This document shows, piece after piece, positions 10,092-57,540 of a DNA stretch of 64,000 nucleotides (the first letter of the stretch is position 1; each line of letters begins with the position of its first letter). The notes under the pieces were generated by a model. That model was given only the letters and a program-made list of their open reading frames with translations. It was not told the DNA's origin and ran no database searches. Origin of the DNA: Candidatus Pacearchaeota archaeon CG10_big_fil_rev_8_21_14_0_10_34_76 (GTDB taxonomy: Archaea > Nanobdellota > Nanobdellia > Pacearchaeales > GW2011-AR1); contig PFDB01000017.1 in assembly GCA_002763075.1 (NCBI GenBank), positions 19,745 through 83,744 of the forward strand. Reading direction: 5' to 3'. A program made the position numbers and the translations under genes.

Positions 10092-12266
10092 ATGGCAACA
10101 GACGACAAAACAGAAAAAGTAAAGAAACTTATGACTCAACCTGAAAAAATTAGGAATATAGCTATAGCTGCGCATATTGACCATGGGAAAACAACATTCT
10201 CAGACAATCTTCTTGCAGGAGCTGGAATGATGTCAGAGGAACTTGCAGGAAAAGCAAGAGTACTTGATTTCCATGCAGATGAAATGGCAAGAGGAATAAC
10301 AATTGATTCTGCAAGTGTTAGTATGGTTCATACTACTGACGGTGAAGATCACCTTATCAATCTTATTGATACTCCTGGGCATGTTGATTTCGGTGGAGAT
10401 GTCACGAGGGCGATGAGGGCTGTTGATGGATGCATTGTTTTGGTATGTGCTTCTGAAGGAATTATGCCCCAGACAGAAACTGTTTTAAGACAAGCTCTTA
10501 AGGAAAGAGTTAGACCTGTTTTGTTCATAAATAAAGTTGATAGATTAATCAAAGAAGTAAAGTTAACTCCTGAAGAGATGCAGAAAAGATTTATCAATGT
10601 CATCGGTAAAGTGAATGATCTTATTGAAAAAATAGCAGAACCTGAATTTAAGGAAAAATTTAAGGTTAATGTTCAGGATGGAAGTGTCGCATTTGGAAGC
10701 GCTTACCATAAGTGGGCATTGTCTGTCCCATATATGCAGAAAAAGGGGTTAACATTCAAGAATATAATTGATGCTTATAATGATGGAGAAGATTCTTATA
10801 AAGCACTTTCCAAAAAAGCTCCATTGCATGAAGTTGTCCTGAATATGGTTAACAGACATCATCCCAATCCTACAGATGCTCAGGCATATAGAATTCCAAA
10901 AATCTGGCATGGGGATTCTGAAAGCGAAGTTGGGAAAGATTTAACTTCTTGCAATCCAGATGGAGAACCTGCATTTGTATGCACTAAGATTGTGGTAGAT
11001 AAAAATGCTGGAGAAATAGCTACGGGAAGACTTTTTTCAGGAACATTGAGGCCTGGAGATGCAGTCTATATGAATCTTGCTAAAAGAAAGTTAAACCTAC
11101 AACAAGTGTCTATCTATAAAGGTGCTCAAAGAATACAAGTTGATAAGGTTGTAGCAGGCAATATTGTTGGTCTTGTTGGATTGAAAGGTGTTTTTGCTGG
11201 TGAGACAGTCAGCACTAAACAGATTGAACCTTTTGAGGCAATCAAACATATTTTTGAACCAGTTGTTACAAAGAGCATTGAAGCTACCAAAGCAGCTGAC
11301 CTTCCAAAACTTGTGGAGATATTGAGACAAGTGGGAAAGGAAGATCCTAGCATTCAGATTGAAATAAATGAGGAGACTGGAGAAAATCTTATTTCTGGAA
11401 TGGGAGAACTACATTTAGAAATAATTGAAAATAGAATCAAAACAGAAAAGGGCCTTAATGTAAAAACTGGTGCACCTATTGTTGTGTATAGAGAAACCGT
11501 TTCTAAAGAAAGCCCAATTATGGAAGCAAGAACTCCTAATGGACACAATGTATTTCAATTTAGTATTGAATCTTTGGAAGATGAAGTTCATAAGAAGATA
11601 ATTTCAGAAGAAATCCCAGAAGGAAGAATGAAGAAGAAATCTGAAGAAATCTGGAAGAAGCTTGAAGAAGGAGGAATGAGCTCTGATGAGGCAAGACAAG
11701 TAAGAGAAATATATAAAGGAAATATATTCGAGGATAGAACAAGAGGTATTGTGCTTCTTGGTGAAATTATAGATTCAATAATGGATGGATGGAAACTTGT
11801 TATTGATGGAGGTCCACTTGCAAAAGAACCTATGATGAAGACAAAGTTTATAATTCATGATGCAAAAATTCATACAGATCATATGCATAGGGGTCCTGCT
11901 CAGATATATCCTTCTGTAAGAAAAGGAATGTTTGAGACAATGCAAAAAGCGGGGGCTTCGTTGCTTGAACCTATACAAACACACCTTGTGGAAGCACCAG
12001 TAGACTTCATGGGGGCAATAACTGCACTAATATCTACAAAGAGAGGGGTTCTTGAAGATGTGCAACAGGATGAGGCTGGAATAAGCATAACTGCAAAGAT
12101 GCCTGTAAGTGAAATGATTGGATGGAGTAATGATCTGAGAAGCAGGACGGAAGGAAGAGGAGTTTCTAGCTTAATTGACCAGAATTATCAAAAACTTCCT
12201 GGAGAGCTACAAGAGAATGCAATCAGAAAAATCAGAGAAAGAAAGGGATTGAAAGAAAACCAGTAA
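10092..12266 (+). CDS. fusA: translation elongation factor 2 (aEF-2)
   Basis: 724 aa with GTPase motifs AHIDHGKTT, DTPGHVDF and NKVDR. EF-2 domain IV carries the HxDxxHRG diphthamide-site motif (HTDHMHRGPAQ). Confidence 0.95.
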   Translation: MATDDKTEKVKKLMTQPEKIRNIAIAAHIDHGKTTFSDNLLAGAGMMSEELAGKARVLDFHADEMARGITIDSASVSMVHTTDGEDHLINLIDTPGHVDFGGDVTRAMRAVDGCIVLVCASEGIMPQTETVLRQALKERVRPVLFINKVDRLIKEVKLTPEEMQKRFINVIGKVNDLIEKIAEPEFKEKFKVNVQDGSVAFGSAYHKWALSVPYMQKKGLTFKNIIDAYNDGEDSYKALSKKAPLHEVVLNMVNRHHPNPTDAQAYRIPKIWHGDSESEVGKDLTSCNPDGEPAFVCTKIVVDKNAGEIATGRLFSGTLRPGDAVYMNLAKRKLNLQQVSIYKGAQRIQVDKVVAGNIVGLVGLKGVFAGETVSTKQIEPFEAIKHIFEPVVTKSIEATKAADLPKLVEILRQVGKEDPSIQIEINEETGENLISGMGELHLEIIENRIKTEKGLNVKTGAPIVVYRETVSKESPIMEARTPNGHNVFQFSIESLEDEVHKKIISEEIPEGRMKKKSEEIWKKLEEGGMSSDEARQVREIYKGNIFEDRTRGIVLLGEIIDSIMDGWKLVIDGGPLAKEPMMKTKFIIHDAKIHTDHMHRGPAQIYPSVRKGMFETMQKAGASLLEPIQTHLVEAPVDFMGAITALISTKRGVLEDVQQDEAGISITAKMPVSEMIGWSNDLRSRTEGRGVSSLIDQNYQKLPGELQENAIRKIRERKGLKENQ

Positions 12267-12396
12267 GTTTATGATTCACAATGGATTATCAACATTGATG
12301 AAAAATGTACCTGTTTAATTTTTTGAGGATTCTTTGATGGCAAATAGAATCCTAGACTAAGAATCTTTTTAAACGGTTAAGTTTATCCTTGATAAA

Positions 12397-12741
12397 ATGG
12401 GAATAAAACCAAATAGAAGAACATATAGAGGGAAAACAGGTATTAAAGAACTGAGAAAAATTTCACCTTTGATTGGCAAAGCTACGGAATTTGTTTTGAA
12501 GGCAGAAGCATATAAGGGAATAGATTCTCGCAGATTTTTATCATGTATGGATGAGGCAATGCAGTTAAACTGGAGAATAGGACGAGAGGATTTGGCAGAT
12601 GCGAATGCTAAAGCAATATTAAAAGTAAACCCAGATTATTCTCCGAAACATAGACCTGGCATTCAATCTCATCAATACGACGAATTATTATCCTTTTTTT
12701 ATAGGATTGCTGAAAGAGAACTACAAATTAATCAATATTAA
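12397..12741 (+). CDS. hypothetical protein
   Basis: 114 aa ORF with a TATA-like CTTTTTAAAC box upstream. I recognise no family. Confidence 0.4.
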   Translation: MGIKPNRRTYRGKTGIKELRKISPLIGKATEFVLKAEAYKGIDSRRFLSCMDEAMQLNWRIGREDLADANAKAILKVNPDYSPKHRPGIQSHQYDELLSFFYRIAERELQINQY

Positions 12742-12831
12742 TTAAAATTAAATAAATGAATGGATACTTGATTTTTGAGAAAGATTTATTAATATTAAAT
12801 AACTTTAATTAATATTGAAAAGAGGTTGTAG

Positions 12832-13053
12832 ATGGGAATAAAAACATTTAGCATTGATAATGAGACTTATGAAAGATTTAGAGAGTTCTGCAAAAAAGAG
12901 GGATATAGCATGAGCAAGAAAGTTGAGAATTTTATGAAAGGTGAAATGGAGAAGTTGCGCTCTGCAAAATCAGGAAAAAATCTGCAAGGGTTAAAATCAT
13001 TTAGTAGCGAAAAGAAAGCAGCAACAGAACATAGTTTCAGCAGATATTGTTAA
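12832..13053 (+). CDS. small ribbon-helix-helix (CopG/Arc-like) DNA-binding protein, putative
   Basis: 73 aa. The N-terminal strand-helix-helix pattern KTFSIDNETYERFREFCKKEGYSMSKKVENFMK resembles RHH regulators and antitoxins. Confidence 0.45.
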   Translation: MGIKTFSIDNETYERFREFCKKEGYSMSKKVENFMKGEMEKLRSAKSGKNLQGLKSFSSEKKAATEHSFSRYC

Positions 13054-13298
13054 GTTTTCAAACTTGTGAGAGTTGAAAAATAATTATTTTGTCTGTTTGA
13101 TTTTTCTTCCTTGTAATCTATTTCCTGAAGAAAAAATCGAAATTCTGGGCTTCTCGTTATAATTGAAGAAGGTAAGGAAATTCTATACGTGTCGTCGTTT
13201 TTGTGTGTTTCCGTGTAAGAATTGTTGGCAAAATTGATTCCAGCTAAACCTATAAGAGTAAATGAAATGAAATTTTGTTGTCTCGAAGATCGTCGCAT
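13050..13298 (-). CDS. hypothetical small protein with a signal-peptide-like N-terminus
   Basis: 82 aa. MRRSSRQQNFISFTLIGLAGINFA looks like a basic n-region, a hydrophobic core and Ala. It lies 36 nt downstream of the five-gene operon on the same strand. Coding status is uncertain. Confidence 0.3.
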   Translation of the reverse strand: MRRSSRQQNFISFTLIGLAGINFANNSYTETHKNDDTYRISLPSSIITRSPEFRFFLQEIDYKEEKSNRQNNYFSTLTSLKT

Positions 13299-13334
13299 CT
13301 TAATGTGTTAGGAAAATGGTTTTTAAATATGTTA

Positions 13335-13739
13335 CTAAAACCTATTGTGTTTTTCATACAATTCTCTAACTATTGTTCTAACATTATGCCAAGAATCAGG
13401 TGCTAATTCAAAACAATAAACATCAAATCTGCGAGAAGGGATTTGGTTTAAAGACATTCTGTCATTTATACTCTTGCTTAAATCTGTAGAATCAATATCT
13501 CTAAAAAAATAATTGTCCACTAAATGTAGAACACGTACAGGCCACTCATCAAGCAAACAAACCTCCTTAGGCCGTACATAAAGTAATGGTTTTCCTGCAC
13601 CAACTTGATGCAGGGGAAGTAAGTCAATGCAAGTATAATGATCCCATCTAAATGCTGTCTTTATCTTCGGAGGAATTTCAGATCTTTCTGGCTGAATAAT
13701 TGGAGGTTCTAATACATTAGGTTTTATTTGTGTTGGCAT
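13335..13739 (-). CDS. hypothetical protein (operon gene 5)
   Basis: 134 aa with no recognisable motif. Its start abuts the stop of the upstream gene (13739/13740). Confidence 0.55.
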   Translation of the reverse strand: MPTQIKPNVLEPPIIQPERSEIPPKIKTAFRWDHYTCIDLLPLHQVGAGKPLLYVRPKEVCLLDEWPVRVLHLVDNYFFRDIDSTDLSKSINDRMSLNQIPSRRFDVYCFELAPDSWHNVRTIVRELYEKHNRF

Positions 13740-14348
13740 TTATGTAACACCTCTATAATGAGCATTCATGGCTTGATCCCATTCTGAAAGCTTTTGTTCA
13801 ATTTCTTTTATTCTTTTGTTGCATCTGGTTATATCTTTTGGCCTTTGCTGAATTTCGTATAGCATTTGTTTTCCATCTATACCTTCATCTGCGCGATTTT
13901 GATAATGGCTCCAATTTTTATAACTTTCCAACCTATCTCTCTCTTTCTGAAGACCTTTTTGTAAATCTTCATACCATGCTTGTTCTAATTTTTGAGCGCT
14001 AGAAGGATCAAATGCCCTTAAACAGTTATCATCAATACCTCCAAGACGATTATCCAAACATATAAGGCCATATTGTGGAGGCAAGCCAATATCAAAACTA
14101 GATAAAAATATTTCTGCAACACATCCTTGATAAAAAGGCGTAGTTGCTGTTAAAGCAAGAAAGGCAGTTAGTTGCTGCTCTAATACGCTTGGCTCTTTTC
14201 CTCTTTTTGTTTGCACACCTGAGACCATTATGTCAATAAACGTACTATATCCTTCTCTTACTATATTCCCTCTTCTTTCTTTCATTATTTCAATAAGGTT
14301 GTCCCGTTCTGTAATGATTCTGCCCTTTTGCTCCGGAGGTATTGTCAT
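13740..14348 (-). CDS. hypothetical protein with a coiled-coil-like C-terminal half (operon gene 4)
   Basis: 202 aa. The C-terminus is rich in heptad-like charged helices (QKLEQAWYEDLQKGLQKERDRLESYKN...KRIKEIEQKLSEWDQ). A 4-nt start/stop overlap links it to the upstream gene. Confidence 0.55.
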   Translation of the reverse strand: MTIPPEQKGRIITERDNLIEIMKERRGNIVREGYSTFIDIMVSGVQTKRGKEPSVLEQQLTAFLALTATTPFYQGCVAEIFLSSFDIGLPPQYGLICLDNRLGGIDDNCLRAFDPSSAQKLEQAWYEDLQKGLQKERDRLESYKNWSHYQNRADEGIDGKQMLYEIQQRPKDITRCNKRIKEIEQKLSEWDQAMNAHYRGVT

Positions 14349-14944
14349 TTTATTTCTCCCGGTTTTTCATTTACACCAAATTGACCTCTAACTAAATCGT
14401 AAGTCATCTTTTGGGGTGTTCCAAGAAGGGGGGCTACAAATGTTAGAAAAGCTGCAGCGTCTTTTAATTTGCCCCAATCGATTTGCCTGAAGGACTCAAT
14501 CGTAGGAGTAAGATCTAAATCTCTGACGCTTTCTATTGCCCCTTCTAACATGGACCCTCCCATCAAATATAAAGCATATAATGGAGTCTGTCCGGTTGCA
14601 AAAGCAGCCACATCTGCACAATATTTTCTAACCACCTTGCCTTTTTCTGTTGCCCCAACAAGATTTCTTACCCAATCATTATAGATTCCGTAGGGTCTGC
14701 CTGTGAGAGAGTTGCCAATAGCAGCTGCTCCTCTAGTAGCCCATGCTTCCGACCAATCTAGTCCAGCTGCATATCTCTCATTTAATATGTATATTAAGGA
14801 GAAAAGATTCATCGCTATTCCATCTACACCAAACTTGTAAACTGAATTATTCGTCAATACCCCTGTCGCTTTTTCTCCCATAACCCCCTCTAAACCATTT
14901 ATTATTCTGAATTTCCTTGGATATTTTTCTGATTCTTCTGTCAT
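14345..14944 (-). CDS. membrane protein resembling the L-alanine exporter AlaE family (tentative)
   Basis: 199 aa. GRPYGIYNDWVRN...CADVAAFATGQTPLYALYLMGG resembles, from memory, the E. coli AlaE core (WPYGMYRD...LADILAYVTFQSPVYVAILL). It has several hydrophobic segments. Not verified by any search. Confidence 0.4.
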   Translation of the reverse strand: MTEESEKYPRKFRIINGLEGVMGEKATGVLTNNSVYKFGVDGIAMNLFSLIYILNERYAAGLDWSEAWATRGAAAIGNSLTGRPYGIYNDWVRNLVGATEKGKVVRKYCADVAAFATGQTPLYALYLMGGSMLEGAIESVRDLDLTPTIESFRQIDWGKLKDAAAFLTFVAPLLGTPQKMTYDLVRGQFGVNEKPGEIK

Positions 14945-15142
14945 TTAACCTCCGCATCTCCTGTTACCAGATTTATAATCGCGTTCGATTCTCTTCGCTA
15001 CATATTCACTGCTTGCTCGTGGATTATTTTCTACTGCTCTTCTTATAGCTTCATCAGATACTCTTCGATGCCCCTTCCTGTCAAGTTCTTGCCCGACCAA
15101 GATTTCTCTTGTACGCTTCCAATGATCTACTCCTCCCCCCAT
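14945..15142 (-). CDS. small basic hypothetical protein ending in Cys-Gly-Gly (operon gene 2)
   Basis: 65 aa, Arg/Lys-rich and predicted helical by eye. It is abutted on both sides by neighbouring genes, with a 1-nt overlap at 15142. Confidence 0.4.
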   Translation of the reverse strand: MGGGVDHWKRTREILVGQELDRKGHRRVSDEAIRRAVENNPRASSEYVAKRIERDYKSGNRRCGG

Positions 15143-15528
15143 TATCTTGAAACCTCCTGGGAAATGACTAAGTTCTCCAATTCATTCAAGGCTGCCAAAC
15201 TTACAGACTTCGTTTTTTCAGATAACTTGCGTTCATAGGCTCCCGCGATCTTATTGTAGAATAGTTCTAATTGATTATGGGACATTTCATGCCATCCGAA
15301 TAGCCATTTGCTATCCTTAAACAATGCAATTCGGTAACTTGGCACACCGCTCCCGCGACAAGTATCATCTGCGATTAGATTATATCCTCCTCCAAAATCG
15401 ATTCTATAAGAATTATGTCTAATGGGATTATGAGTTTGACATTCCCATTTATCAATTGGAACTATCTCAGCAAGTTCATTAAGTCTTTGCAAAGTTATAT
15501 TATCTTCTGCCTTATTTTCTTCTTTCAT
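15142..15528 (-). CDS. hypothetical protein (operon gene 1)
   Basis: 128 aa with no recognisable family. It is the first gene of the minus-strand operon, divergent from the Lrp-type regulator. Confidence 0.55.
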   Translation of the reverse strand: MKEENKAEDNITLQRLNELAEIVPIDKWECQTHNPIRHNSYRIDFGGGYNLIADDTCRGSGVPSYRIALFKDSKWLFGWHEMSHNQLELFYNKIAGAYERKLSEKTKSVSLAALNELENLVISQEVSR

Positions 15529-15621
15529 ATTAGAGTACCGGTAATCAAATAAATAAAAATTATGCTGAGAAATTTTAATAAAAATGGTTAAATTTAAATA
15601 TTTATAGATAATAGTTAAAAT

Positions 15622-16590
15622 ATGACTGAGAAATTAGATCTTTATGATAAAAAACTTCTTTATGAGTTAGATAAAGATTCCTCGCAAAGTGTGACTGCCT
15701 TGGCAAAGAAATTGCGAAGATCAAAGCAATTTATTCTCTATAGGATGAAGAAATTGGAGGAATCTGGAATAATAACTGGATATCATGCTATAATTGATAT
15801 GTCAAAGCTTGGATATTTTACATTTAGAGTTTATTTTAAGTTCCAGCAGACAACACAATCAGAAGGCGAAGAATTTGTTCAACATGTGCGTGAGAGACTG
15901 AAGCAGGTCTGGACAATAACCTCCATGCATGGAAAATGGGATTATGCGTTATTTCTTGGAGTTAGAACAATCGAGGAATTCCATAAAATCTGGGATGATA
16001 TCATGCTTCAGCATAAAGAAAAGATAAAATCATATAATGTTGCAGTCTATGCGCCAGTATATAATTTCAATAGAAAATTTTTTCTTGATAGGGTTGCTAC
16101 TGGTGAAAGCATCGAAAGAATATACGGGTCTGGAGAGAAAGAAAATATTGATGAAAAAGAACTAAGATTGATCGAGGCTTACGCAAATAATGTGCGCTTA
16201 TCCTCATTAGAACTATCTAGTAAGGCCAAGATGTCTCCCGAAACAATAAGGAAGAAGATAAAAGAACTTCAGAAAAGGAAAGTTATTGTAGGATATAAAA
16301 TAGGGTTGAATCTTGAGAAGATAGGCTATGTTTCTTACAGGGTTGATTTGCATCTTATTTCTACAAAGAAAAACAAGGAATTATTTGAGTTCTGCAGACA
16401 TCATAAGAATATCTATCAGGTAAACAAAAGTATTGGCGGAGCAGATTTTGAAATAGAGGCGGTTGTGAAAGATTTTCTGCATTTGATAGAGCTAATAAAT
16501 GAGATAAAAAACAAATTCAAAGATGTTGTCAATGATATTGATTACTTTGGGTTCTCAACGTTCCATATATTGCAATTCATTCCGGATTAA
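15622..16590 (+). CDS. Lrp/AsnC-family transcriptional regulator with two tandem HTH plus effector-domain units
   Basis: 322 aa. Two internal copies of the Lrp/AsnC pattern occur: LDLYDKKLLYELDKDSSQSVTALAKKLRRSKQFILYRMKKLEESGIITGY and IDEKELRLIEAYANNVRLSSLELSSKAKMSPETIRKKIKELQKRKVIVGY. Each is followed by an RAM-like beta-alpha segment. Confidence 0.75.
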   Translation: MTEKLDLYDKKLLYELDKDSSQSVTALAKKLRRSKQFILYRMKKLEESGIITGYHAIIDMSKLGYFTFRVYFKFQQTTQSEGEEFVQHVRERLKQVWTITSMHGKWDYALFLGVRTIEEFHKIWDDIMLQHKEKIKSYNVAVYAPVYNFNRKFFLDRVATGESIERIYGSGEKENIDEKELRLIEAYANNVRLSSLELSSKAKMSPETIRKKIKELQKRKVIVGYKIGLNLEKIGYVSYRVDLHLISTKKNKELFEFCRHHKNIYQVNKSIGGADFEIEAVVKDFLHLIELINEIKNKFKDVVNDIDYFGFSTFHILQFIPD

Positions 16591-16775
16591 TCATCTATTT
16601 ATCGAGTAGCCTATAGGAAAATAATGCTATTTTGGCATGAAAAAAATATTGAAAATTAGAAAATATTGCATGTTATAAAAAAATAAATTAGACTGCAAGA
16701 AATTTTTTCGTCGATAAAAAACAAATTGAAATATGAAGAATATTTTTCGTCTGTATAAATTTTTTGAACGAAAAG

Positions 16776-16817: not shown

Positions 16818-18098
16818 ATGGCAAGAGAAAAACCAATAATCAATGTTGCTTTTGTAGGTCATGTTGACCATGGAAAATCCACAACTATAGGTAGGCTTAT
16901 GTTTGATTCTGGATCATTGCCTGCTCAAGCTTTAGAGAAACTTAAGATTTTAGCACAAGAGCATGGAAAGGTTGGATTTGAATTTGCATATGTTATGGAT
17001 AAATTTAAGGAAGAGAGAGAAAGAGGAGTTACAATTGATCTTTCATACCAGAAAGTTATTACACCTAAGAGAGAAGTTACTATCATTGATGCTCCTGGAC
17101 ACAAAGATTTTGTAAAAAACATGATTACTGGAGCTTCACAGGCAGATGCTGCTTTCTTAACAGTTGCTGCTAAGGAAGGTGTACAGCCACAGACAAAAGA
17201 GCATGCATGGCTTTTGAGGACGATGGGTGTTAAGAATATTTGTGTTTTGATAAATAAGATGGATACTGTTGATTATAAGGAAGATGCGTATAACAAGGTA
17301 AAGGAAGATGTTTCAGCAGTTATCAAGCAAGCAAGATATAATCCTGCTGAAGTCACATTCATAGCTGCATCTGGTTTTAAGGGAGATAATGTTTACAATA
17401 AATCAACCAATATGCCCTGGTATAAAGGACCAACTGTATTTGAACAGCTTGATTTGTTCCCAGAGCCAGAAAAGCCAAATAATCTCCCATTAAGAATGCC
17501 ATTGCAAGATGTTTATGATATCACAGGTATTGGAACTGTTCCTGTTGGAAAGATTGAGACTGGAGTAATGAAAATTGGACAGAAAGTTATTGTATTGCCT
17601 GGAAGATCTGGAACAGGTGTAAGTGGAGAAGTAAGAACTATTGAGATGCATCATGAACAGATGCAAAATGCTGAATCTGGAGACAATGTTGGAATTAATA
17701 TTCGTGGTGTTGGAAAGAAAGATGTTGCAAGAGGAGATGTAGTCTGTGATGCAGCAAGTCCAGCAACAATTGCTGAAGAATTTGTGGCACAAATTGCAGT
17801 TATCTCACACCCAACAGTTATTGCAAAAGGATATACCCCAGTATTCCATGTTCATACTGCGCAGGTGCCATGTCAATTTATTGAACTTATAGAGAAAACA
17901 GGACCTGATGGAGTGAAAGCTGACAAGCCAGATTTCTTGAAGAACGGAGATGTTGCTAAAGTAAGATTGAAACCTATAGGAAACTTGGTTTTGGAAACAC
18001 AAGCAGCTAATCCACATATGTCTGGGTTTGCAATCAGGGATGCTGGAGCGACAGTTGCTGCAGGTGTATGTATTGAGATAACTCCTAAGAAGCTTTAA
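16818..18098 (+). CDS. tuf: translation elongation factor 1-alpha (aEF-1alpha)
   Basis: GTPase motifs [17 protein letters not shown] and NKMD with the EF-1alpha domain II/III pattern. I place the start at the ATG ([15 protein letters not shown]), not the TTG at 16764 used in the ORF track. Confidence 0.95.
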
Positions 18099-57391: not shown

Positions 57392-57540
57392 GGCCTCGTA
57401 GCTCAGCCTGGTTAGAGCACTGGACTCTTACTACAACTTTTCTTAGAAAGAAAGGTTCTAGGAGTCAAAAGAACTATGATAGTTCCAAGACTTGGATAGG
57501 AGAGATCCAGGTGTCGGGGGTTCAAATCCCCTCGAGGCCA
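57392..57540 (+). tRNA. tRNA-Lys (anticodon CUU) with a 74-nt intron at the canonical 37/38 position
   Basis: Acceptor GGCCTCG/CGAGGCC and a D arm identical to the UUU isoacceptor. Anticodon stem CTGGA/TCCAG, loop CTCTTA|intron|A with anticodon at 57427-57429. T arm GGGGG-TTCAAAT-CCCCT, discriminator A. Intron about 57431-57504. Confidence 0.85.

Follow-up and report, generated by a model that had tools for sequence, protein, structure and literature searches.

What is encoded by the closely packed minus-strand genes that lie between the genes for the translation elongation factors EF-2 and EF-1alpha in Candidatus Pacearchaeota archaeon CG10_big_fil_rev_8_21_14_0_10_34_76, a DPANN archaeon from Crystal Geyser, and do their products belong to a single system? 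These genes, designated here O1 to O6 in the order of transcription, were considered within a stretch of 64,000 nucleotides (nt) of contig PFDB01000017.1, referred to below as the window, and all coordinates are positions in it. The block is identical in several independent assemblies, the contig being present in samples such as ERZ27293414, SRR6240789 and JGI 3300025142, and its NCBI entries (COU60_03935-03975) are hypothetical proteins. An earlier reading of the sequence, here called the original prediction, had proposed an undescribed multi-protein system of export, envelope or conflict type. On balance, we lean instead towards an operon of composite, lineage-specific make-up within a hypervariable interval; the core of the operon would be a tandem Lrp/AsnC-type regulator and the divergently transcribed gene O3, encoding a protein of the AlaE family.

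All six open reading frames (ORFs) lie on the minus strand, and their sizes and junctions are exactly those originally described: O1, the first cistron (15142-15528, 128 amino acids (aa)), O2 (14945-15142, 65 aa), O3 (14345-14944, 199 aa), O4 (13740-14348, 202 aa), O5 (13335-13739, 134 aa) and O6 (13050-13298, 82 aa). Read base by base, O1 and O2 share one nucleotide in TAATG, O3 and O4 overlap by 4 nt in ATGA, and O2/O3 and O4/O5 abut, with TAA followed directly by ATG; a spacer of 36 nt separates O5 from O6. Each of O2 to O5 is preceded, 3-9 nt upstream, by GGAGGT, GGGAG or GAGGTG (GGAGGT at 9 nt for O2 and GAGGTG at 8 nt for O5). O1 has no such ribosome-binding motif, and a TATA-like element, TTTTTATTTATTT, is found ~25-37 nt upstream of its ATG, in keeping with leaderless translation of this gene. 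The usual archaeal pattern is the same, with no leader on the first cistron and Shine-Dalgarno (SD) sequences before the internal ones. A scan for bacterial promoters and terminators returned fewer sites than in shuffled sequence and is uninformative for an archaeon. The abutting pairs O2/O3 (14944/14945) and O4/O5 (13739/13740) are also in the same frame, and stop read-through would give O2-O3 and O4-O5 fusions.

At a stop-codon frequency of 0.076 per codon in this AT-rich DNA, a frame would remain open by chance with P ~4e-5 over 128 codons and ~1e-7 over 202 codons. A codon-usage log-likelihood score, for which 22 long genes from the window served as the training set, gave 0.17-0.28 bits/codon for O1-O5 in frame (0.167 for O1, 0.217 for O2 and 0.181 for O5) and -0.08 to -1.4 for their other five frames. 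For bona fide genes, in-frame windows in the bottom 5% reach 0.14-0.20 bits/codon, and the 95th percentile of out-of-frame windows is -0.27 to -0.43. By these measures O1-O5 are truly coding, the codon scores of O1 and O5 being towards the low end, and together with the coupled junctions this bears out the proposal of one tightly coupled operon. Of the "five or six proteins" that had been counted, five are thus retained, O5 being the last certain cistron, and the coding status of O6 is doubtful, as is its proposed nature as a secreted peptide. Its score of -0.076 falls between the coding and non-coding distributions, it has no SD motif, its GC content at first codon positions is atypical (0.30), and it was skipped by most of the gene callers behind the public contigs. 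It is annotated by NCBI (PIN89281.1), and its frame is open in a second strain, where it differs at 7 of 82 residues. A structured RNA in the spacer between O5 and the convergent gene RHH73 (see below), which includes the O6 region, was also considered and rejected (folding z = -0.11, no credible Rfam match).

The packing itself had been taken to imply stoichiometric function. A zero or negative gap occurs in 16 of the 61 same-strand neighbour pairs, the coding density is 0.88, and because tight spacing is this common in the genome, packing does not prove a stoichiometric complex. What the four successive close junctions indicate is an operon; they lend no particular support to stoichiometric function.

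The member of the operon that can be placed in a family is O3, for which an AlaE-like nature had been suggested only tentatively. O3 matched PF06610 with 47.9 bits (gathering cut-off 25) over profile positions 5-113 of 141, and all of its 22 homologues carry PF06610; those with a taxon name are Pacearchaeota, Nanoarchaeia and Woesearchaeota. In an alignment with Escherichia coli AlaE (taken from NC_000913), to which O3 is 23% identical, R45 of AlaE corresponds to R71 of O3 and is invariant, and D84 corresponds to D111, a position at which every aligned sequence has D or E. Both R45 and D84 of E. coli AlaE are reported to be essential for efflux (PMC7176098, citing Kim et al. 2017). An AlphaFold2 (AF2) model of O3 built from 18 sequences (mean predicted local distance difference test (pLDDT) 81) contains long helices at 34-58, 64-81, 104-142 and 157-188, which coincide with the positions equivalent to the four transmembrane segments (TMS) of AlaE. 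At 199 aa, O3 is 50 residues longer than E. coli AlaE and lies outside the family size of 149 +/- 22 aa (PMC7176098), with an N-terminal extension of ~25 aa and, in the O3 subclade, ~24 inserted residues between TMS3 and TMS4. Many polar residues (N46, N55, R71, N78, T81, Q119 and Q178) are invariant in the DPANN AlaE-like clade. Comparison of two strains revealed five synonymous and two non-synonymous changes in O3, with a ratio of non-synonymous to synonymous substitution rates (dN/dS) of 0.12. O3 is a bona fide AlaE-family member and is under strong purifying selection. No similar solved structure was found by a structure search of the Protein Data Bank (PDB) or by a sequence-profile search of it.

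A dedicated divergent regulator had also been predicted, and the 322-aa product of the plus-strand gene at 15622-16590 (LRP322) agrees with this. It matched the Pfam families HTH_24 (55.7 bits), HTH_AsnC-type (44.7 bits) and AsnC_trans_reg (30.0 bits), each in two stretches, and is a tandem, two-repeat Lrp/AsnC regulator with its helix-turn-helix (HTH) and RAM domains each present twice. Scores against the NCBIfam Lrp and AsnC models (52-67 bits) are below the equivalog cut-offs, and LRP322 is therefore a member of the family and not the orthologue of a named regulator. Assignment as a siroheme decarboxylase, AhbA or AhbB, was rejected, since the NCBIfam scores (24.6 and 22.6 bits) fall far below the cut-offs (140 and 125). 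Between LRP322 and O1 lies a control region of 93 nt (15529-15621), and a spacer of the same length precedes the corresponding operon at locus L051, described below. The two spacers have a core of ~35 nt in common (TTATTTAAATTTAwCsmTTTTTrTTAAAAwTTCT), which includes TTATTTAAATTTA, and a palindromic element, TAAATTTAAATA, is located at 15579-15606 in the window. This region would contain the promoters and probably an operator.

Comparison with other loci indicates which of these associations recur. Orthologues of the regulator (phmmer E 4e-39 to 6e-134, identity 27%-63%) are encoded divergently beside an AlaE-like gene at L011, L021, L027 and L025, and because the pair recurs in these four other archaeal loci, the regulator and the AlaE-like protein appear to form a conserved functional core. 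The operon partners of the AlaE-like gene differ among them. None are present at L011 and L025. At L021 (5481-6561), a gene for a YbaK/ProX-type aminoacyl-tRNA editing protein (PF04073, tRNA_edit, 92.9 bits) overlaps the start of the AlaE-like gene; ProX-type enzymes deacylate Ala-tRNA(Pro). At L027 (4571-6573), a 472-aa radical-SAM-like protein (CxxxCxxC; PF04055 at 19 bits, below cut-off) is encoded with a 4-nt overlap with the AlaE-like gene, and in the window O3 has O1 and O2 upstream and O4 and O5 downstream. Further AlaE-like genes occur without such a regulator: as three tandem paralogues at L012 (4848-6561), in a tight six-gene operon with a gene for a PEP-utilizers-domain protein at L019 (2-4493), and adjoining a urocanase gene at L013-L016. 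A 208-aa gene of L012 that had been considered a relative of O4 proved to be the third AlaE-like paralogue (PF06610 at 23.5 bits, just below cut-off); it lies between the other two. The closest homologue of O3 (59% identity) is found at L017, directly upstream of the EF-1alpha gene and on the same strand.

O4 has a different distribution. Three relatives, P0005, P0006 and P0029, are 28-33% identical to it, two recovered by exhaustive phmmer of 1.84 billion cluster representatives and the third by a profile search, so that the family comprises four sequence clusters. Profile scans of genome, viral and metagenome contigs gave no locus for this family, and its genomic context is known only from exact sequence look-ups. 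These place O4 relatives at L008 and L009/L010, where the upstream partners (232 aa and 121 aa) are unrelated, and at L051. The last comes from a fairly close relative, in which EF-1alpha is 82% and the regulator 77% identical, against only 31% for O4, and consists of the regulator gene, the 93-nt spacer and an operon of genes for 201, 251 and 56 aa followed by the O4-like gene, with no AlaE-like gene. None of the 201-, 251- and 56-aa products belongs to a Pfam family or resembles O1, O2 or O5. O4 thus diverges much faster than its neighbours in L051 (31% identity against 77-82%). Between two members of the family, 50 synonymous and 73 non-synonymous differences gave a dN/dS of 0.31, consistent with a real protein under moderate constraint. 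The AF2 model (pLDDT 75) is all-alpha, with a C-terminal helical hairpin, in line with the coiled-coil protein that had been predicted in this set. Its structural neighbours in the PDB (best E 0.37) and BFVD (best E 0.57) are not significant, and a sequence-profile search of the PDB yielded no match. We regard O4 as a genuine helical protein, rare and quick to diverge, that accompanies the tandem regulator.

O1, O2 and O5 matched only themselves in the exhaustive phmmer search (1.84e9 cluster representatives). With O4, they also had no noteworthy match in Pfam, PHROG, NCBIfam or PADLOC, and the view that four of the five proteins lack a recognisable family is upheld. A lenient pairwise comparison of O1, O2, O5, O6 and P114, a neighbouring gene product described below, with the unassigned proteins of L051, L008 and L009 gave a best E of 0.01 in a database of eight sequences. 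O1 is intact in the strain variant L020 with four amino-acid changes (dN/dS ~0.5, from only 6 substitutions). O2 is the tiny basic protein of the original prediction, with an isoelectric point of 10.25. Between strains it differs at 6 of 65 residues, five of them within residues 18-30 (dN/dS ~0.5, from only 11 substitutions), and its nucleotide divergence between the two strains, 5.6% against 1.3% for O3, is the highest in the operon. O5 is likewise intact in the second strain, differing at 9 of 134 residues. O1, O2 and O5 are best described as species-restricted orphans in cargo slots for which other lineages have unrelated genes, and a complex of these proteins with O3 need not be assumed.

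The island location that had been assumed for these genes was substantiated by gene maps of relatives. The EF-2 gene (10092-12266, plus strand), identified from the Pfam families of the public contig and the gene maps, is the left anchor of a variable interval, and the EF-1alpha gene (16818-18098, plus strand), 76-82% identical to those of L017 and L051 (82% for L051), is the right anchor; the interval belongs to the archaeal cluster of RNA polymerase, S12, S7 and elongation factor genes. The mechanically called EF-1alpha ORF opens at TTG 16764, and as homologues begin with MAREKP, the true start is probably ATG 16818. In the window the interval extends over 12267-16763. Among relatives (for example L028, L036, L038, L040 and L051) it is hypervariable, holding from zero to ~12 extra genes and varying in at least 10 lineages. 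Its content in relatives includes VapBC/MazE-PIN pairs, HPr-like and AhpC/thioredoxin-like proteins and many orphans, with VapBC-like toxin-antitoxin pairs at L028 and L051. The GC content and codon usage of the block in the window match the rest of the window, and no flanking direct repeats, integrase or bordering tRNA were found at its borders. Elsewhere in the window, Rfam reported two unusually long plus-strand tRNA genes (856-991, 136 nt; 57392-57540, 149 nt), presumably intron-containing, which were not reported by ARAGORN.

Two further plus-strand genes lie in the interval. The gene at 12832-13053, convergent with the operon and not a member of it, encodes a 73-aa ribbon-helix-helix (RHH) protein, RHH73, that matched an Arc-like repressor in PHROG (4e-6). 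Related genes are present at 22 metagenome loci, eight of which adjoin EF-2 and/or EF-1alpha on the same strand. An RHH73-like gene lies between the EF-2 and EF-1alpha genes at L028, L029, L031, L036, L038, L040, L043 and L044, and is often directly 5' of EF-1alpha. The family has a nearly invariant core, SMSKKVE (with a few SMSRKVE or SMSKKIE), and a C-terminal end of [FM]x[KR][YF]C. Many DPANN contigs carry such a gene between EF-2 and EF-1alpha, which makes RHH73 an ancestral resident of the interval, and its family might regulate the EF-1alpha operon. A functional pairing of O4 with RHH73, relatives of which are adjacent in L009/L010, was dropped, as the 22 RHH73 relatives have variable neighbours, none of them O4-like. 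Between EF-2 and RHH73, the gene at 12397-12741 encodes an unannotated protein of 114 aa (P114) with a codon score of 0.253, no family match in Pfam, PHROG, NCBIfam or PADLOC, and no relative in any of the loci compared. The P114 and RHH73 genes open with nearly the same 20 nt (ATGGGAATAAAAcCAaATAG at 12397-12416 and ATGGGAATAAAAaCAtTTAG at 12832-12851), and both proteins begin with MGIK.

Taken together, the recurrent pairings are regulator with AlaE, at four other loci, and regulator with O4, at one other locus. AlaE-like homologues at 17 other loci (~12 distinct genomic places) never adjoin an O4 relative, and at none of the three other genomic places with an O4 relative (L008, L009/L010 and L051) is there an AlaE-like gene next to it. 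The original prediction had itself named homologues that never co-occur elsewhere as evidence against a system, and apart from the two pairings this is largely the situation found. As these components do not occur together elsewhere, and O1, O2 and O5 have no homologues, the operon is more readily interpreted as a lineage-specific composite than as a conserved multi-protein system.

In the composite reading, a conserved regulator and promoter would drive an AlaE-family efflux protein plus lineage-specific cargo. By analogy with its family, the two ligand-binding RAM domains of the regulator would sense a small amino acid, and the regulator would act on the 93-nt divergent control region, the conservation of which is observed. 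A single polycistronic mRNA is suggested by the sequence features, with leaderless O1 followed by SD-led, translationally coupled cistrons. By homology, O3 would act as a "safety valve" that releases surplus alanine, or another small amino acid like it, as E. coli AlaE does under Lrp. For DPANN archaea, which as tiny symbionts take up amino acids and peptides from hosts or the environment, a regulated amino-acid safety valve would be physiologically sensible.

Several observations weigh against the composite reading with O3 as an exporter. By the Kyte-Doolittle (KD) scale, the TMS-equivalent segments of O3 have means of 0.64, -0.12, 0.44 and 0.43, against 1.64, 1.18, 1.62 and 1.07 in E. coli AlaE, and the maximum window value (KD19) is 1.25 for O3, against 2.03 in E. 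coli AlaE and a usual transmembrane threshold of 1.6. The whole DPANN AlaE-like clade (P0008-P0028 and O3) is weakly hydrophobic, with a maximum KD19 of 1.05-1.38, and for this reason membrane insertion and transport by O3 are not assured. L017, the closest AlaE relative, has no divergent regulator in the 179 nt available upstream, and in L051 O4 is found under an orthologous regulator without AlaE, so that the primary target of the regulator may not be AlaE. Finally, a run of four junctions without any positive spacer, each with a ribosome-binding motif, would also fit a true multi-subunit assembly. The hydrophobicity values in particular would suit a clade, including O3, that is no longer a membrane exporter, and is instead a soluble or peripheral helical protein in some other role, still under an amino-acid-type regulator. 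The many invariant polar residues, the N-terminal extension and the insertion in the O3 subclade are in keeping with this, as are the partners encoded elsewhere, which are cytoplasmic enzymes (the YbaK-type deacylase, the radical-SAM-like protein and the PEP-utilizers-domain protein). Nevertheless, the AlaE profile is passed over nearly its whole length, both essential charged residues are kept, the helix positions match, and small polar-rich helices can be membrane-embedded in oligomers. Moreover, L012 pairs the clade with a more hydrophobic paralogue, the 208-aa protein (maximum KD19 1.78), which suggests hetero-oligomers. Loss of the exporter function is on this evidence quite unlikely.

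The coupled junctions are likewise what would be expected if O1-O5 worked together as a module not yet described and confined to this lineage, with an envelope, export or conflict role, in which the AlaE-like protein was co-opted as the membrane component and O4 served as a conserved structural or adaptor subunit. The purifying selection on O4 and its recurrence under the orthologous regulator in L051 can be read in this way, and the rapid divergence of O4 and the cluster of O2 variation at residues 18-30 are patterns common in conflict and interaction genes; VapBC-like pairs in the same interval of L028 and L051 and the host-like codon usage of all the orphans also fit. Set against this, the 17 other AlaE loci lack O4, the three other places with O4 lack AlaE, O1, O2 and O5 lack homologues, no structural neighbours emerged, and tight packing is common genome-wide. 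Nor did the conflict or defence role that had been suggested find a counterpart among known defence-system profiles: O1, O2, O3, O5 and O6 had zero matches in PADLOC-DB v2, and the sole match of O4 was of a coiled-coil to MkoC (13.6 bits, E = 0.003 in a single-protein search). A joint module is therefore considered unlikely. A cargo-swapping operon, driven by the strongly conserved regulator from its orthologous promoter, in which the fast-diverging O4 family and the orphans O1, O2 and O5 would form a rapidly evolving host-interaction or conflict module of these obligate symbionts, perhaps with a repurposed polar AlaE-like protein, induced by a host amino-acid signal, is a speculative and rather improbable extension of the composite reading. 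Least of all does the block resemble a remnant of an integrated virus or plasmid with O1, O2, O4, O5, P114 and RHH73 as cargo. The variable interval is compatible with such an origin, orphans and an RHH protein resemble typical mobile-element content, and RHH73 has weak matches to plasmid RepB-regulator and mobilisation N-terminal profiles. However, neither integrase, transposase, replication gene, flanking direct repeats nor adjacent tRNA is present, GC content and codon usage are host-like, the O4, RHH73 and AlaE-like families have no relatives in 2.9 million viral contigs, and RHH73 is ancestral beside EF-1alpha in many lineages, so that a mobile-element remnant is very improbable.

If O3 is indeed an exporter, the AlaE family, described as bacterial, would extend to archaea and there possess a dedicated regulator. 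The weak hydrophobicity of the DPANN AlaE-like clade raises the question of whether it is still a transporter. The locus would also illustrate a form of genome innovation, located between two of the cell's most conserved genes, in which lineages retain a regulator with its promoter and replace the genes under its control. The O4 family and the three orphans are candidates for lineage-specific biology, and nothing indicates a new class of system.

Among known systems, the composite operon is most directly compared with E. coli AlaE (YgaW; TC 2.A.104; PF06610). In E. coli, Lrp induces expression of alaE as a response to L-alanine (PMC6801825), and the alaE product acts as a safety valve (PMC6801825, PMC4554458). 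The distribution of the family has been given as "Bacteria" only (PMC7176098) or as gamma- and alpha-proteobacteria (PMC4554458). No paper linking AlaE with DPANN was found in the literature search, and the NCBI pipeline already names some archaeal homologues AlaE. O3 likewise passes the profile, keeps the residues equivalent to R45 and D84 and has predicted helices at equivalent positions, and in both cases a Lrp-family regulator is associated with an alaE-type gene. However, E. coli AlaE is a bacterial protein of 149 aa, whereas O3 is archaeal, 199 aa long with its extension and insertion, and much less hydrophobic. The E. coli regulator is the global Lrp, whereas the one considered here is a dedicated, adjacent, tandem-repeat Lrp/AsnC protein, and O3, unlike E. 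coli AlaE, would be co-transcribed with other genes.

The arrangement further recalls Lrp-BrnFE and LysG-LysE of Corynebacterium glutamicum, which are divergent regulator-exporter pairs for amino acids. A dedicated divergent regulator, a small amino-acid efflux gene and a shared control region are common features, but the exporters belong to other families, and the C. glutamicum regulators face exporter subunits only, whereas variable and mostly orphan cargo is present here. With defence-island-like hot spots the interval shares a fixed position between anchors (EF-2, RHH73 and EF-1alpha), content that is different in almost every lineage, and the presence of toxin-antitoxin pairs and orphans. 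The copy in the window differs in having no known defence gene, as judged by PADLOC, and no mobility genes, and a conserved tandem Lrp regulator with an orthologous promoter is unusual for an island. The pairing of a regulator with an exporter is thus itself known, in the form of Lrp-controlled amino-acid exporters, and the novelty lies in a tandem regulator dedicated to the locus, in the exchange of cargo and in the low hydrophobicity of the AlaE-like protein.

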